DNA from: an uncultured Mycoplasmatota bacterium
Lineage (GTDB): Bacteria; Bacillota_I; Bacilli_A; RF39; UBA660
Direction of reading: 5' to 3'
DNA length: 64,000 bases
Assembly (NCBI GenBank): GCA_900547775.1
Contig: URHW01000002.1
Location: 13,041-77,040 of the forward strand
In this document: piece after piece, positions 2,863-64,000 of the stretch
Layout of the letters: every line of letters begins with the position of its first letter
Numbering within the stretch: the stretch's first letter is position 1
Notes under the pieces: generated by a model
Told to the model about the DNA's origin: nothing
Database searches by the model: none
Seen by the model: the letters and a program-made list of their open reading frames with translations, nothing else
Made by a program: the position numbers and the translations under genes

Positions 2863-3083
2863 TGAAAGATAAAAAGTTTGAAGATATGTTAAGTGAACTA
2901 GAAACACTTGTAAAAAAATTAGAAAATGGAGATACTGATCTAGATACATCTATTGAGACATATCAAAAAGCAATGAAATTAGCTAAAGAATGCGGTGATA
3001 AATTAAATAGTGCTGAAGAAGCAGTCAACAAAATTTTAAGCGAAGATGGAAGTTTAAAGGACTTTCATATTGAAAATGCTTGA
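2862..3083 (+). CDS. xseB: Exodeoxyribonuclease VII small subunit
   Basis: 73 aa; FE..L.ELE.LVKKLE.GD..LD.SI..Y pattern; translationally coupled to xseA (TAATG); the only TGA stop I checked in this part of the window. Confidence 0.85.
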   Translation: MKDKKFEDMLSELETLVKKLENGDTDLDTSIETYQKAMKLAKECGDKLNSAEEAVNKILSEDGSLKDFHIENA

Positions 3084-3133
3084 AGTTATAGTCTTAAATA
3101 GTATATAATATAAGAGAAAGATAGAGGTATGTT

Positions 3134-4753
3134 ATGAACAAAGTATTGCCACTTATTTCTCTTTTTATTATGAGCATAGTTAGTATAATGTATTGGACAT
3201 TTAAACCAAAGAATGAATTATATGATGCTAAATGGAATGCACCAGATACAACTTTAGCTATTACGATCAATGGTGAGATTAGTACAACATTTCCAACAAC
3301 AAATATGTATACAGGAACAGTAGAATGTACAAGTGGTACAGGCAAAGTAGATTGGAATGGAACAAAATGGATTCTTAATACAAGTGGAATAACTAAAGGA
3401 AGCACTAAGTGTAATGCAACATTTATAACAAAAAAGCTAACTCTATCTGAGGCAATTCTAGCAAATAATGAAGTTAAGACTCCAATAACTAAACCAGGAA
3501 AAGAAGTTAGTGCTCATACATTAGATGATGCGCCAAATCAAACAGCAAGTGTATCGTCAGGTTATCAAGCATATTATATAACTTATGGAACTGGCTGGAA
3601 AGCAAACGGTACAAACTTTGATTTAACTGGAGCTGCCGTAACAAGTGATACATATGCTAATTCTTATTCTAGTTTAGTTGGTAAATACATTTCAGATTCA
3701 AATTTCTATTTTTCTGGTTCAAGTACTGCTGGAACTATGAGGACAACAACTAATCTAAGTAGTGTATATTATGTGGTAAGTGCTACACAAAATAGTTTAA
3801 CATACAAACAAATAAGCTCTGTTAAAAACGTTAGTGAAGCACTTTTAGCAAGTACAGAAGATGATTATGGTACATCATACTACTTTAGAGGAGCAGTTAA
3901 AAATAACTATGTAGAATTTGCTAAGAAGTGCTGGAGAATAGTAAGAATAGTAGGAGATGGTTCAGTAAAACTTATCTTACATAATGATAATACTGCAAAA
4001 GCAACTAATCCTTGCTCATCTGCAAAAAATAGTGCTAAAGGTGCATTTGCAAGATACTCTGGTACAACGTACAAGAGTGCATTTAATGAAAATGGTGATG
4101 ACAATGCTTATGTAGGATTTATGTATGGAACACCAGGTTCTAGAACATATAAGGCTACCCATGCTAATAATAATAAGAGCACAATACTAACTAATTTAGA
4201 AACTTGGTATACAAATAATTTAGCAACATATGAAAGTGTACTTGCCGATACAATATGGTGTAATGATAAAAGTACTTTTACTACTTTCACAAATGGTTCA
4301 ACTTTTGGAACTGGGTTAGGATATGGAACGAACGAAACTGGATATGGATCATATAATAGAATTTATGGTGACAACGCTGCATCATATGCAAGGCCTAGTT
4401 TAATTTGTCCCAATGATAATAATGGAGGAAAGTTATCTAAATTTACAGTTAGTGATACTGCAAATGGAAATGGTAACTTAACATATAAAATAGGACTAAT
4501 AACAGAAGATGAACTGGCATTTGCAGGATATGTTTATGGTCAGCAAAATACTACAACATTTTTACAAGAAAATGCTATGGATACTTTATGGTGGTCCTTG
4601 TCGCCTACTGTGTTCGATGGTGCGTACGGTGCTTCCGTCGGCTGGGTTTATGCGAATGGCACCTGCGGGGTACGCCCTTCAATTAGTCTCGTTTCATCAA
4701 TTACAATTTCACGAGGTTCTGGCACCTCAGAGGATCCTTATGTAGTAAAATAG
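3134..4753 (+). CDS. Membrane-anchored/secreted protein of unknown function with C-terminal WW..SP...GVRP (DUF1566/C-type-lectin-like) module
   Basis: N-terminal hydrophobic anchor MNKVLPLISLFIMSIVSIMYW; central YYFRG..NNYVEF..WRIVRIVGDGSVKLI; C-terminal LWWSLSP..GVRPSISL..GSGTSEDPYVV. Confidence 0.75.
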   Translation: MNKVLPLISLFIMSIVSIMYWTFKPKNELYDAKWNAPDTTLAITINGEISTTFPTTNMYTGTVECTSGTGKVDWNGTKWILNTSGITKGSTKCNATFITKKLTLSEAILANNEVKTPITKPGKEVSAHTLDDAPNQTASVSSGYQAYYITYGTGWKANGTNFDLTGAAVTSDTYANSYSSLVGKYISDSNFYFSGSSTAGTMRTTTNLSSVYYVVSATQNSLTYKQISSVKNVSEALLASTEDDYGTSYYFRGAVKNNYVEFAKKCWRIVRIVGDGSVKLILHNDNTAKATNPCSSAKNSAKGAFARYSGTTYKSAFNENGDDNAYVGFMYGTPGSRTYKATHANNNKSTILTNLETWYTNNLATYESVLADTIWCNDKSTFTTFTNGSTFGTGLGYGTNETGYGSYNRIYGDNAASYARPSLICPNDNNGGKLSKFTVSDTANGNGNLTYKIGLITEDELAFAGYVYGQQNTTTFLQENAMDTLWWSLSPTVFDGAYGASVGWVYANGTCGVRPSISLVSSITISRGSGTSEDPYVVK

Positions 4754-4816
4754 AATCATAATTTGATAAAACTCCCTAAGTATGCTATAATTGTAGTAAT
4801 TAAGGGGGTTTTTATT

Positions 4817-5724
4817 ATGGAGGTTATTAATTTATCTAGTAGGTCTTTTAAAGGTTTAAGGACTCTTGAATTACCTAATACTGTATATAATACTGAGGGT
4901 AAGATATATATTTATGAGGATAAAGATAAGTGGGATAAGAGGATACATTTAGTTAAGAGGTTATATATTAATAGTGGCCCTATATTTAGTAACAAACTTG
5001 CTACTGTTAATTCTTTAGTTGATTATGAAGGACAGATTGGTATACCTGAGTTTGTTTATCCAGAAAAGTTGCTTACTGTAAATGGAGAAATTGTTGGGTT
5101 TACTATGCCTTATGTTCCATCTACTAATTTAAAAGAAATATTAACTAGTTCTAAGACTCCTGCTGAAGTTAAGATAAAGTATTTGAAAGATATTGGCACT
5201 ATTTTGGAGAAGATGGAAGAGGTCGTAAGTATGCTGATCTTGAGGATTTTTATTTAAATGATTTACATGAGGGTAATTTTATAGTAGATAAGGAAGGTAC
5301 TCTTAGAGTAATTGATTTAGATTCTTGTAAGATTGCTGGTAATATGCCATTTTGTTCTAAGTATTTATCTAGAATGAATCCTTCTATTAGTGATCTTCCT
5401 GGTAAATATAAGTTAAGCAATTTTAGATGTTCTGGAGATATTATTCCTAATAAAGATACTGATTTGTATTGTTATATAATTACAGTTTTAAATACGCTTT
5501 TTGGTAGAGAAACACATAGATTACCTCTTGAGACTTTTTATGATTATTTAGAGTATTTAAGAAAGATTGGTGTTTCTACTGAACTTATAGATATAATTTC
5601 TGATATTTATTCAAATAAACATAATACTAATCCAAGAGATTTGTTGGATGGATTAGAGCCGGTATTTTATAAGTGCCATGAAAGTGTATTTAAGAGTTTG
5701 ACGAAGCAAAGAAGATGCCAATAG
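4817..5724 (+). pseudogene. Protein-kinase-like (APH/choline-kinase fold) gene interrupted by a -1 frameshift near 5215-5225
   Basis: Frame 2 (ATG 4817, RBS AAGGGGG) ends at 5257. Frame 1 is open from 5173 and reads GRKYADLEDFYLNDLHEGNFIVDKEGTLRVIDLDSCKIAGN (HxGN catalytic loop and IDLD metal-binding motif), continuing into ORF 5344-5724. Confidence 0.65.
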
Positions 5725-25100: not shown

Positions 25101-25106
25101 TAAAGT

Positions 25107-25268
25107 ACCTAGAAGATGGTCAAATATAAAACCGACTAATGGTGAATATAGGGAATCTAATTAGCAGTGGTGTTGAAAACTAGCTAGCCTAGGCTCCTAA
25201 AGCTGTCTATGTGATGCCCACCTTGCGTGCGCGCGGGTTTTTATCACTGCGGCTGTCTTCTAGGTTTT
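25107..25268 (+). ncRNA. Structured small RNA of about 160 nt, class unresolved (6S RNA is the best guess from synteny with tcdA/yrvM)
   Basis: 15-bp closing helix, 25107-25121 with 25251-25265 (10 Watson-Crick pairs ACCTAGAAGA/TCTTCTAGGT plus G-U/G-C extension). Second helix GCAGTGGT 25164-25171 with ATCACTGC 25243-25250. Locally GC-rich core; ends in TTT; own promoter; no ORF. Confidence 0.45.
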
Positions 25269-25291
25269 ATTATATATATAAAGGAGAATAT

Positions 25292-51404: not shown

Positions 51405-51422
51405 TTCTCTCTATAATTATTG

Positions 51423-51692
51423 CTTCATTTTAAAAATTATCAAAGTCTGATTTATATAATTTATCCTGTTTAACTTTAAATTATCATATTCTTTATAAAC
51501 TAATTTTTTTGCAACACTAGCCGATATTTTTCCAGCATTATGTAATATTTCTTTACCATTAAATTGCAAAAAAGCATTCAATTTTTCTACTCAATTTTTC
51601 ATAGACATTGCATTATGATTTTCTGCTTGGAATTCTGCATAGTCTAAATACATAGTTTCAATTCTATTCAAATCTTTTAATTCTTTTTCATT
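51423..51692. repeat. Repeat B copy 1 (about 270 bp, about 85-90% identical by eye to 62118-62390)
   Basis: Manual alignment of the two stretches. Confidence 0.8.
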
Positions 51693-51743
51693 ACTATATT
51701 CTTCTTTTGATAAACGAAGATACGCTGCTACCTTATATGTCAT
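51423..51743 (-). pseudogene. Chimeric remnant: first about 15 codons of a serine recombinase fused to a frameshifted RhuM C-terminal fragment
   Basis: MTYKVAAYLRLSKEE (typical resolvase/large serine recombinase N-terminus), then KELKDLNRIETMYLDYAEFQAENHNAMSMK matching RhuM 62086-63108; the rest (51423-51590) matches 62118-62280 with indels. Confidence 0.65.
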
Positions 51744-51760
51744 CTTAATATTACAACTTT

Positions 51761-52495
51761 CTATAAAATTTTGCAAAGAAGATTTGGTTCTTCTTTTTTT
51801 ATTTCATTTTCAATTATCCATTTTATATCTTCTATCGATTTATCAATATTAAATATGCCATTACCTACCGGATAATAAACAGGATAAACTTTATATTCGT
51901 TTTTATTAATTTGTATTTTGTGACATTTTTTTCTATTTTCAGATACAGATATCTTTTTATTTAAAATAATAGAACTAACTTGGTTTCCAAAAGTAATAAT
52001 TATTTTTGGTTTAATTATGTTTATTTCTTTGAATAATAAATCAAGATATTTTTTCAACACTTCATCAGGCAATGGTCTTGCATCTATTTGTGTACATTTA
52101 CCTAAATTAGTAATGAACAATTTATTTTTTTTAATTTCTTCGTAAACATAGTCGCAAAACTCATAATCCCATTCTTTTGGCTTTTTTTCTTGAATTTTAT
52201 TAAATATTTCTTCACTTAATAAATCAACTTTATAGAACAACTTCCATATGTTTTTAGTTCCTAACCATGGAGACTTTCTACCTTTCCAAGATTTATCACT
52301 GGCAATATTTTTTCCTGTAGGATTCATAAAAACAAAACATATATCAGGATTTTTTTCACATCCACCATTATATATAGAATCTAATTCCTTAGCACCATAT
52401 TTAACTTGTAATTCATCATAATCTTTTCTTAAATCTTCTATCTTCAAAATATTCACCTTCTTATAAAAAAGTTTCTTTAAGTAGTTCTTACCCAA
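51761..52495 (-). CDS. Uracil-DNA glycosylase superfamily protein (family 4/5-like, no Fe-S cysteines seen)
   Basis: ICFVFMNPTG (motif A position), FITNLGKCT, YYPVGNG (motif B position); true start uncertain (TTG 52495 or an internal TTG about 52448 after AAGGTG). Confidence 0.6.
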   Translation of the reverse strand: MGKNYLKKLFYKKVNILKIEDLRKDYDELQVKYGAKELDSIYNGGCEKNPDICFVFMNPTGKNIASDKSWKGRKSPWLGTKNIWKLFYKVDLLSEEIFNKIQEKKPKEWDYEFCDYVYEEIKKNKLFITNLGKCTQIDARPLPDEVLKKYLDLLFKEINIIKPKIIITFGNQVSSIILNKKISVSENRKKCHKIQINKNEYKVYPVYYPVGNGIFNIDKSIEDIKWIIENEIKKEEPNLLCKIL

Positions 52496-52705
52496 TTTTC
52501 CTTATAATTTTTGTTAATTTTTTATTAAAAATTGTAAAAAGAAATTTAATTAAAAGCCTTATAAAATAAGGGTTTTAAAGAGAGTTTATATAAGTCGTAC
52601 TTTACCAGTTAATTCCGACTGATGGAAAACTTTTTGGACTATCTTCTTTTTTCTTTTCTGCTCTAATTTTTCTTTTTTGATACATATCCATTTTAATCAC
52701 TTCTT
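52492..52705. repeat. Repeat A copy 1 (214 bp, near-identical to 63504-63717)
   Basis: Manual alignment; only a handful of mismatches. Confidence 0.85.
52602..52691 (-). CDS. Candidate 29-aa basic peptide MDMYQKRKIRAEKKKEDSPKSFPSVGINW (repeat-encoded, copy 1)
   Basis: Intact ORF conserved in 3 copies (also 63614-63703 and 61937-62086); below the ORF-track cut-off. Confidence 0.35.
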   Translation of the reverse strand: MDMYQKRKIRAEKKKEDSPKSFPSVGINW

Positions 52706-52973
52706 TCTATTCTATCATTTAAAAAAATACTTAAAAGTATTTGTTTTTCGTTTTTAACTTGAAAGTATTATATCATATTTTTGTTTATTTATAAAGTCAA
52801 GAGCCTCAAAATATTTATCTTCATATTTGAATATTACTTTTATATTACCATCAACTTTAAGAATACTTGAATTATGTAACAAATATAATTACACTCCAAA
52901 TAAACTTGCTGAATTATCTGCTATTGCACCATCAACATTAAGGGCATTATTGGCAAACTTGGAGTATTAAAAT

Positions 52974-61936: not shown

Positions 61937-62086
61937 TCAATTCCCACAAAGCCTTGCAAATAAATGATTTCTTAAAGGGGTTAAATAAATCGTAATCAAC
62001 CAGTTGATACTCGTTGATGGTAAACTTTTTGTATCTTCGTTCATTTTTTTGTTTTTTCTCATTTCTCTTTTTTGGTACATATCCAT
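61937..62086 (-). CDS. Candidate 49-aa variant of the MDMYQKR... peptide, start overlapping the RhuM stop (TAATG)
   Basis: MDMYQKREMRKNKKMNEDTKSLPSTSINWLITIY...; the stop after INW present in the other copies is absent here. Confidence 0.3.
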   Translation of the reverse strand: MDMYQKREMRKNKKMNEDTKSLPSTSINWLITIYLTPLRNHLFARLCGN

Positions 62087-63108
62087 TATTTATCACTTCC
62101 ATTCTCTATTATTCTTACTTCATTTAAAAAATTATCAAAATCTGATTTATATAATTTATCTTGTTTAACTTTAAATTTATCATACTCTTTATAAGCTAAT
62201 TCTTGTGCTACTTTTGCAGATATTTTCCCAGCATTGCGTAATATCTCTTTACCATTAAATTGCAAAAATGCATTCAATTTTTCTACCCAATCTTTCATAG
62301 TCATAGCATTATGATTTTCTGCTTGTAATTCTGCATAATCTAAATACATTGTTACTATTCTATTCAAATCTTTTAATTCCTTTTCATTTAAATAGTTTTT
62401 TGCAATGTCCACGTCATATTTATATATTGGTCCATCAGGAGAATTTTTCCAATTGGTTAGTCCCATATTTTCTTTTTCTGAATCAACTCTGTTATATATT
62501 ATTTCAGCTGCAGTATTACCAGTTATTGCATAATGTAATTTATTTTGAACTGTTTTAAAAAATTCTTTTGTTATTTCTGAATCTTTATCATAATCAACAC
62601 TACAAGAAGAATATATATCTGTTATTTTTTGATAAAATCTTCTCTCACTTGAACGAATATTCCTAATTCTTTCAAGTATTTCTTCAAAATAATCCTCGCC
62701 AAATATGTAATTAGGATTTTTTAATCTTTCATCATCCATAACTACACCTTTTATCATATATTCTTTTAATATTTTAGTAGCCCAAATTCTAAAGTTGGTT
62801 GCTTTTTTTGAATTTACTCTATATCCAACTGCAATAATCATATCAAGGTTATATATCTTTACAGGTTTTTTAGAATTATCAACGTCGGTTTTTCCGACGG
62901 TGTTATTTTCATCAAGTTCACCACTATTTAATATATTATTAATATGTTCTGTTATTGTGCTTCTTCCTACGTCAAACAATTCTGCAATCAAATTTTGAGT
63001 AAGCCATATGTCATTATTTATTAACATTACACTAACCTTAATATCATTGTTTGAATCTCTATATATTAAAAAGTCATGATTAGTTATTTGCAAGTTTTTA
63101 TTGTCCAT
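62086..63108 (-). CDS. RhuM-family protein (intact copy)
   Basis: 340 aa; N-terminal winged-helix-like WLTQ..IAELF.V.RSTITEHI, IIAVGYRVNS..AT.FRIWAT..L.EY..KG, DDERLK; RBS AAAGGAG. Confidence 0.75.
   Translation of the reverse strand: MDNKNLQITNHDFLIYRDSNNDIKVSVMLINNDIWLTQNLIAELFDVGRSTITEHINNILNSGELDENNTVGKTDVDNSKKPVKIYNLDMIIAVGYRVNSKKATNFRIWATKILKEYMIKGVVMDDERLKNPNYIFGEDYFEEILERIRNIRSSERRFYQKITDIYSSCSVDYDKDSEITKEFFKTVQNKLHYAITGNTAAEIIYNRVDSEKENMGLTNWKNSPDGPIYKYDVDIAKNYLNEKELKDLNRIVTMYLDYAELQAENHNAMTMKDWVEKLNAFLQFNGKEILRNAGKISAKVAQELAYKEYDKFKVKQDKLYKSDFDNFLNEVRIIENGSDK
62118..62390. repeat. Repeat B copy 2 (3' end of the intact RhuM gene)
   Basis: See 51423-51692. Confidence 0.8.
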
Positions 63109-63135: not shown

Positions 63136-63510
63136 TTATTTAATATCAATTTTAACATTTTTATTCTTATCAATATAAATACATTTTACTTTATTTTCTA
63201 GTTCTAATCTAGTAATATTAGATAAATTTAATTTTTCATTTATAATTTCAATTAGCTTATTTTCACTAATAAATTCATTATTTTCACAAGTTTTATTTCT
63301 ATAGTAGTTAGAGCAATAGTAATAAACTTTTCCTTTTGAAGTTTGTTTACAATATTACCGCCACAACAATTGCACTTTAAAAATCAAGATAAAATATCTA
63401 TACTTCCATCTTTATTTGCTTTAGCATGCCTATCTAAAATATATTGTACTTTATCAAATTTTTCTTTACTTATAATTGCTTCGTGATGATTAGGAGTTAT
63501 AATCCAATTT
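63136..63510 (-). pseudogene. Frameshifted C-terminal fragment of a large serine recombinase (zinc-ribbon/coiled-coil part)
   Basis: ENWIITPNHHEAIISKEKFDKVQYILDRHAKANKDGSIDILS*, then (shifted) CNCCGGNIV and YYCSNYYRNKTCENNEFISENKLIEIINEKL; no catalytic N-terminal domain. Confidence 0.65.
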
Positions 63511-63717
63511 TCCTTATAATTTTTGTTAATTATTTATTAAAAATTGTAAAAAGAAATTTAATTAAAAGCCTTATAAAATAAGGGCTTTAAAGAGAGTTTA
63601 TATAAGTTGTTTTTTACCAGTTAATTCCGACTGATGGAAAACTTTTTGGACTATCTTCTTTTTTCTTTTCTGCTCTTATTTTTCTTTTTTGATACATATC
63701 CATTTAAAACACTTCCT
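63504..63717. repeat. Repeat A copy 2
   Basis: See 52492-52705. Confidence 0.85.
63614..63703 (-). CDS. Candidate 29-aa basic peptide (repeat-encoded, copy 2)
   Basis: Near-identical to 52602-52691. Confidence 0.35.
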   Translation of the reverse strand: MDMYQKRKIRAEKKKEDSPKSFPSVGINW

Positions 63718-64000
63718 TATTTATTATCATTACTTTCTTTTAAATATTTATTGTAAAATTCATCCATTGAAGAAATATATTTTTGATCTTGTATAACCCT
63801 AAATTTTTCATATTCTTTTTCTGCTTTTTCTACTGCTTCTTTATGAGATATACTGCCACTATTATTTAATATTTCTTTTCTTCTAAATTTTAATAAATCA
63901 TCAGTTGCATCTATCCAATCCTTCATTGTCATTACATGCCTTTGTTTTGCTTCATCCTCTGCAAATACCAAAAATAAATTCGTTAAATCTTTCAAATTAT
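63717..64000 (-). CDS. Divergent RhuM-family paralogue, C-terminal part (5' end beyond window)
   Basis: Frame open to the window edge; LKDLTNLFLVFAEDEAKQRHVMTMKDW... parallels LKDLNRIVTMYLDYAELQAENHNAMTMKDW of 62086-63108. Confidence 0.6.
   Translation of the reverse strand, partial: NLKDLTNLFLVFAEDEAKQRHVMTMKDWIDATDDLLKFRRKEILNNSGSISHKEAVEKAEKEYEKFRVIQDQKYISSMDEFYNKYLKESNDNK

Follow-up and report, generated by a model that had tools for sequence, protein, structure and literature searches.

The gene at positions 3134-4753 (+) of the DNA analysed here, a 64,000-nt stretch of a contig from an uncultured Mycoplasmatota bacterium (hereafter the window), encodes a 539-aa protein in AT-rich sequence, and close to its 3' end it carries a short patch that is rich in G+C and poor in adenine. 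This patch raises the question of whether it is a variable region (VR) of a diversity-generating retroelement (DGR), as an earlier note on this DNA had supposed, and if so, whether it is still being rewritten. We consider it probable that the patch is a frozen relic VR of a DGR. The relic VR is placed at 4589-4678 (+), from TGGTGG to CGCCCT, by its composition, by the VR slot of the family alignment, by its homology to template repeats (TRs) and by its invariance among strains.

To describe the composition, we counted 31 G, 24 C, 27 T and 8 A between positions 4591 and 4680, which reproduces exactly the 55/90 G+C and 8/90 A first given for this interval. Among all 90-nt stretches of the 64-kb window, this one has the highest G+C and the lowest A content. 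Its G+C is ~5.5 SD higher than the window mean (25.0/90, SD 5.5), and the window overall has 27.8% G+C. The limits of the patch itself, 4589 (TGGTGG...) and 4678 (...CGCCCT), were defined through homology to the template repeats. The patch lies in the last fifth of the ORF, and ends ~73 nt upstream of the stop codon at 4751-4753, close to the ~70 nt given before. It encodes WWSLSP TVFDGAYGASVGWVYANGTC GVRP, and the codon list and the coding of this segment in the earlier note were correct. The sequence on either side of the patch, inside the same C-terminal module, is AT-rich and host-like.

The stretch of the window that ranks second for G+C is a probable 6S RNA (RF00013) located at 25103-25270 (+), with a full-length model match of 42.2 bits, against a gathering score of 46.4, and E = 2.4e-7. 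This candidate overlaps the called GTG start of a ThiF-family ORF at 25211, and the true start of that ORF is probably located further downstream.

The ORF with its translation and its homologues place the gene in a large multi-copy family that includes DGR-target paralogues. The gene is located between xseB and hisS, and the same locus was found in the same species. We found more than 6,900 relatives of the 539-aa protein in gut metagenomes, with several copies of the family per genome, and the window's member is 61-68% identical to the targets that adjoin DGR cassettes. The N-terminus of the protein has a hydrophobic segment, a putative anchor. Directly downstream of the gene is a pseudogene at 4817-5724 (+), in which a 1-nt deletion near 5222 leaves ORFs of 146 and 126 aa. 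This downstream gene looks kinase-like; it has 302 aa where intact, as in L001 and L002, and a 231-nt internal deletion in L004.

The C-terminal module had been labelled DUF1566, but neither the window protein nor 26 relatives have a Pfam match to that domain at E <= 1. The relatives point to DUF6273 (PF19789) instead, which was matched by 6/26 of them (best E = 7e-6) and, among precomputed matches, by P0088, P0111 and the L097 target. The WW.L.P ... G.RP frame common to the family is also that of the DUF6273 modules of Firmicutes surface proteins. The window protein differs from these members in having no match at E <= 1 in either Pfam or NCBIfam, and its C-terminal module appears DUF6273-like. 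Two AlphaFold2 models had mean pLDDT values of 44 and 43, too low to establish a C-type lectin fold, and a profile search of PDB sequences found no relative of the protein.

To locate the variable part of the module, we examined its alignment with 120 relatives, and found that the flanks LLTADEIAFAGS...YLQENTG...WWSLSP and G(L/V)RPAISLISS...GTSEDPYVV are nearly invariant. The ~27-30 residues between WWSLSP and G(L/V)RP are scrambled in this alignment and rich in N, S, Y, G, D and F, within the fixed frame xxFxGxxAxVWxVxSGxLxxxxVxxxx. The hypervariability of the family is restricted to this slot, and the patch aligns there.

At least two further paralogues are found in the same species, a few tens of kb past the window (L101/L103 17-1615; L008 15730-17547; L006 10001-11635). 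Both have scrambled VR slots, and one of them, P0043, is identical in 175 collection blocks. A gene of 182 aa with an FGE-sulfatase domain (L006 14171-14719) is located near the P0043 paralogue. The FGE-sulfatase domain type is a frequent DGR target elsewhere.

The link between this family and DGRs came from a scan of 80 related loci, in which a repeat of each C-terminal module was sought. In 7/80 loci there is a repeat on the same strand, ~460 nt downstream of the VR. These repeats are identical to the module at 92-100 of 123 positions, with 19-26 mismatches located at adenines of the repeat and 4-5 others near its 3' end. The template is rich in AAC (TGGTGGTCTTTGTCGCCT AAC AAC TTC AAT GGC ... 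AAC GTG AAC ...), and the aligned VRs differ from it at its adenines only. The cassettes at these paralogues have the order target, TR, MutS-like ORF, Avd-like ORF and reverse transcriptase (RT). The 139-aa ORF of the cassette has a MutS_I domain (E = 5e-7), the 115-aa ORF is weakly bAvd-like, and the 369-aa ORF is an RVT_1 reverse transcriptase (E = 2.7e-14). The RTs of the clade form many clusters at 50-62% identity.

We identified two template types, type 1 of 111 nt and type 2 of 117 nt, the latter from a scan of species-representative genomes. In the representative genomes of 185,579 species, a pattern for the 5' end of the TR matched 4 sites only, all of them type-1 or type-2 TRs and none in the window's organism, and in viral contigs it had no match. 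The 16 templated VRs were changed at 304/536 TR-A sites but at only 9/1,264 other sites, and had no gaps. Between samples, the cassette-adjacent targets differ at 20-22 of 123 VR positions (~17%), compared to 2-5% in the rest of the gene. Three other members of the family (L064, L086, L087) have no cassette within 10 kb, yet show 1-2 non-A mismatches to the template, and they are candidate remote targets.

The cassettes at L044, L095, L097 and other paralogues have exactly the gene content and order of the MSL-type cassettes, described as 'Architecture D' (target, TR, MutS-like, avd, RT; Wu et al. 2018, PMC5758913). The window differs in holding the paralogous target gene only, and none of the cassette genes. 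One Hadza gut contig (147,838 bp), from another species than the window's, carries two MSL-type cassettes ~40 kb apart in chromosomal contexts (L095 6785-11098 and L097 6920-11098). Their RTs are ~59% identical, and each has its own template type. Downstream of both Hadza cassettes are AbiE-family genes, which follow a RhuM or Mbeg1-like gene.

A search for template and machinery near the patch confirmed the reported absence of RT, Avd and template from the window. Within the 64 kb, we found no repeat of the patch and no TR-compatible copy; the best candidate, compatible at 77/96 positions with 21 identical, is A-rich noise. The type-1 and type-2 RT, Avd-like and MutS-like proteins gave no tblastn match in the window. 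The same holds for ~17 kb more of the same 555-kb scaffold (L003, L102) and for the P0043 paralogue locus of the same species, where neither a TR nor an RT, Avd-like or MutS-like gene was found. In the window's organism, this search covers ~80 kb of scaffold. Genes flanking the cassettes have no orthologue in the window.

The window does contain a RhuM-family gene at 62086-63108 (-). We considered synteny between it and the RhuM gene downstream of the type-1 RT, and rejected this, because the two proteins are only 52% identical and the neighbourhood instead contains a second RhuM copy, located just past the window edge (L102 8388-9392), and a recombinase remnant. Partial duplicated copies are located at ~51.4-52.7 kb (51408-51703 and 52480-52719), along with an apparent broken serine-recombinase remnant, and the region also takes in 63200-63731. 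This RhuM and recombinase region may be an eroded mobile-element junction.

The proposal of a DGR variable region holds as an account of origin: the patch is a VR by descent, since the gene's paralogues are canonical DGR targets and the patch fills exactly the VR slot. Its conserved 5' boundary, TGGTGGTCCTTGTCGCCT at 4589-4606 (+), matches without a difference the opening 18 nt of the type-1 TR variants found at L026, L038, L043, L092 and L095. The G+C and A contents of the patch (0.61 and 0.09) are close to the means of the templated VRs (0.58 and 0.13), and the third-position C content is 0.40, compared to 0.63-0.72 in the templated VRs. However, the patch fails collinearity with both known TR types, having a length of 90 nt against 111 or 117 nt, that is, 21-27 nt shorter. 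The best gapped alignment to 7 TR variants of the two types gave 12-15 A-site mismatches, 16-21 (about 19) non-A mismatches and 18-27 gap columns, the non-A counts being dependent on the gapped alignment. Of the TR-A sites, 12-15 of 19-22 are changed, compared to 16-21 of 68-71 non-A sites (P ~0.001-0.006), an enrichment that fits VR ancestry. The non-A mismatch rate of the patch is 30-40x that of templated VRs.

The 3' boundary was also compared with that of the templated VRs. In VRs with 0-2 non-A mismatches, ATTTCTCTT stands one codon past Arg-Pro, where template-target homology ends. This motif is present in 16/16 templated VRs, compared to 15/45 of the scrambled or length-changed ones (Fisher P = 2e-6, among sequences that are related). 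From this correlation among related sequences, we infer that ATTTCTCTT is probably the homing signal, that is, a functional IMH. At the position of this IMH-like motif (4679-4693, +), the window reads TCAATTAGTCTCGTT where templated VRs have NNN ATTTCTCTT, with ATTAGTCTC in place of the motif. A functional GC-rich IMH, which had been expected at the 3' end of the patch, is absent. L012 (11408-11545), an allele of the window's locus, carries a near-perfect type-1 templated VR, the 3' flank of which is ATTAGTCTT and not ATTTCTCTT. Either this VR arrived via recombination, or the motif is not strictly required.

The small hairpin GAGGT-N6-ACCTC, reported after the patch at 4712-4727, does exist but is located one base further on, at 4713-4728 (+). 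It falls in the codons of the conserved RGSGTSE segment, and its sequence is unconserved in other alleles. Its folding energy is -2.7 kcal/mol (z = -0.8), and 51/200 shuffles fold equally well or better. As its stability is no higher than that of shuffled sequence, we judged it incidental. Both the hairpin and the terminator readings were rejected.

To assess whether the patch varies among strains, we compared copies of the gene from different samples. Eleven or more contigs, each from a different sample set, encode the exact 539-aa protein. In a sample partly selected by the exact-protein contig look-up and by a 90% identity cluster, 14 protein variants on ~65 contigs differ at 6-24 residues, with no difference within residues 486-516; a VR differing at 10-12 residues would still fall inside the cluster. 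The differing residues belong to the N-terminus and to a few internal blocks, with a further one at residue 533. On the DNA level, the gene is identical in 4 other samples despite 2-3% differences in the flanks, and a fifth has a single-base difference that falls outside the patch. The hypervariability limited to the patch that had been suggested for strain comparison was not observed: the patch is invariant on ~65 contigs, against the ~17% difference of cassette-adjacent VRs. Invariance among strains was part of what the earlier note had counted against its own proposal, and this is what we found.

Other alleles at the site are far more different. Five loci of the same species (L009, L012, L030, L036, L100) have the same xseB-hisS site with flanks that are 95-100% identical, and their genes are only 60-85% identical to the window gene. 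The VR slot of L012 fits the type-1 template except at positions varying among template variants. The slot of L100 is as long as type 2 and has 6-7 non-A mismatches, and its motif is intact; L009 has 16 scattered non-A changes, mostly third-position C-to-T or C-to-A. The slots of L030 and L036 are unrecognisable. Within this series, from templated to decayed to unrecognisable, the slot of the window allele looks rearranged.

A block of 930 nt at 3296-4225 (+) is 100% identical to the L100/P0002 allele of the same locus, and divergence at both of its ends marks recombination breakpoints. Outside this block, the window and L100 are unrelated on both sides, and the VR-bearing C-terminal module begins after 4225. 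Thus, the alleles are recombination mosaics, in which the VR-bearing module moves as a block. A comparison of window 3001-5000 with L001 showed that the whole gene is 100% identical while the flanks are 2-6% different, which suggests a recent allele transfer or sweep.

Taken together, these data can be explained by the following sequence of events. In related gut bacteria, an error-prone reverse transcriptase would copy the AAC-rich template repeat, and the cDNA, randomised at the template adenines, would overwrite the last ~111-117 nt of the ligand-binding module. The result, in a genome that otherwise has 28% G+C, would be a GC-rich, adenine-poor stretch with many NNC codons, and such an origin by DGR mutagenesis would explain the composition switch at the patch. 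Since then, the slot would have changed its length by indels, gained non-adenine substitutions and lost the ATTTCTCTT boundary, so that the element could no longer overwrite it and it would be inherited as a fixed sequence. The missing motif would be the cause of the homing block, and the window's genome would hold no matching template elsewhere. Diversity at the locus would now come from homologous recombination, which would exchange whole alleles or the C-terminal module between strains.

One observation runs counter to the relic reading: the patch has no A at third positions, and its G+C is above that of the visibly decayed allele L009. This is unlike long AT-ward drift in a 28% G+C genome, and the patch looks rearranged rather than old. 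Since it looks rearranged and not drifted, there is some room for an unseen 90-nt template elsewhere in the genome. The patch would then be a live remote VR, written from a third template of ~90 nt that belongs to a DGR elsewhere in the genome, and stable in the sampled populations. We regard this as unlikely, although the VR-like G+C and A content, the absence of third-position A and the concentration of changes at TR-A positions would agree with it. It would also be in line with the non-adjacent candidates in the family (L064, L086, L087), with the remote targets documented for other DGRs (PMC5758913) and with the large RT diversity of the clade (clusters at 50-62% identity), and the template search in the organism spans only ~80 kb. 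However, the patch is invariant where cassette-adjacent VRs are not, and the pattern for the 5' end of such a template gave only type-1 and type-2 TRs among the 185,579 species' representatives and 0 in viral contigs. Moreover, the codons GTG, GCG (twice) and GGG would need AAG-type template codons, which are absent from known TRs, and the 3' boundary motif is missing. The suggestion of a remote or orphan VR is therefore borne out in that there is no local template or RT, but not in the sense of a live remote VR, given the non-collinearity, the many non-A differences, the lack of the 3' motif and the invariance.

Two explanations that dispense with a DGR were also weighed. It is very improbable that the patch came from a GC-rich foreign donor by recombination or HGT, with no link to DGR activity, which is close to the gene-conversion or HGT alternative raised earlier. 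In its favour, recombination has clearly made mosaics of the alleles at this locus, between which the C-terminal module moves in one piece. However, a GC-rich donor is unnecessary, because the templates have 47-50% G+C and the templated VRs average 58%. The limits of the patch coincide with the VR and TR limits of the family, and dozens of paralogues show the same local rise in G+C, which is explained by the TR sequence. It also speaks against such a donor that the parts of the module flanking the patch are AT-rich and host-like, and that, past its constant first 32-40 nt, the patch core is without a close match in ~100 related loci. Nor do we give much credence to an embedded structured RNA or DNA signal, or to the encoded amino acids (G, A, V, W, P, R), as the source of the composition, an explanation that seems hardly tenable here. 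It is true that a structured RNA, the probable 6S RNA, ranks second in the window for G+C, and that Gly, Ala and Val codons are frequent in the patch. But neither strand of the patch folds unusually (z = +0.78 and -0.19), and the patch has no Rfam match. Between its conserved flanks, G and C make up 60% of the third positions and A is absent from them, in a window with 28% G+C overall. The composition anomaly is found at synonymous sites, and so the amino-acid content cannot explain the patch.

Descriptions already exist of DGRs, of MSL-type cassettes, of remote targets and of inactive DGRs (PMC5758913, PMC8144416). The relic VR resembles remote DGR targets, such as those of Treponema denticola and Legionella (Wu et al. 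2018, PMC5758913), in its position in the C-terminal slot of a putative surface protein, its adenine-poor and NNC-rich composition, the homology of its gene to genes adjoining TR-RT cassettes, and a locus distant from the cassette. Remote targets are defined through A-to-N-only differences from the TR (PMC5758913), whereas the patch has ~19 non-A differences and indels, is without the boundary motif and shows no strain-to-strain variation. It also resembles the DGRs scored as 'inactive' by Roux et al. 2021 (PMC8144416), in that a VR locus is without population-level variability. The window VR differs from these in being orphaned and structurally degenerate, and is more than quiescent. In that survey, VRs adjoining the RT were scored, and remote targets were stated to be undetectable (PMC8144416).

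The patch alone is an ordinary by-product of a known mechanism. As an A-poor, NNC-rich island in an AT-rich genome, it indicates that such islands can flag a DGR target even without the retroelement, and remote or orphan targets of this kind are missed by large metagenome surveys, by their own statement (PMC8144416). The locus provides a natural series, at one site in one species, for the fate of a hypervariable site after mutagenic homing stops, and the same allele series could show how recombination redistributes DGR-made diversity.

We tentatively put forward, as a possible extension, that DGR-written modules pass by homologous recombination to paralogous or allelic loci which the retroelement cannot rewrite, and that the frozen variants are kept as divergent alleles that sweep between strains. 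The identity of the window and L100 over 930 nt followed by unrelated C-terminal modules, the templated VR of L012 without ATTTCTCTT, and the window allele that is identical across flank-divergent strains suggest, rather than demonstrate, such a spread. If this is true, one cassette, possibly present in some strains or sister species only, would supply ready-made binding-site diversity to a multi-locus surface-protein family.
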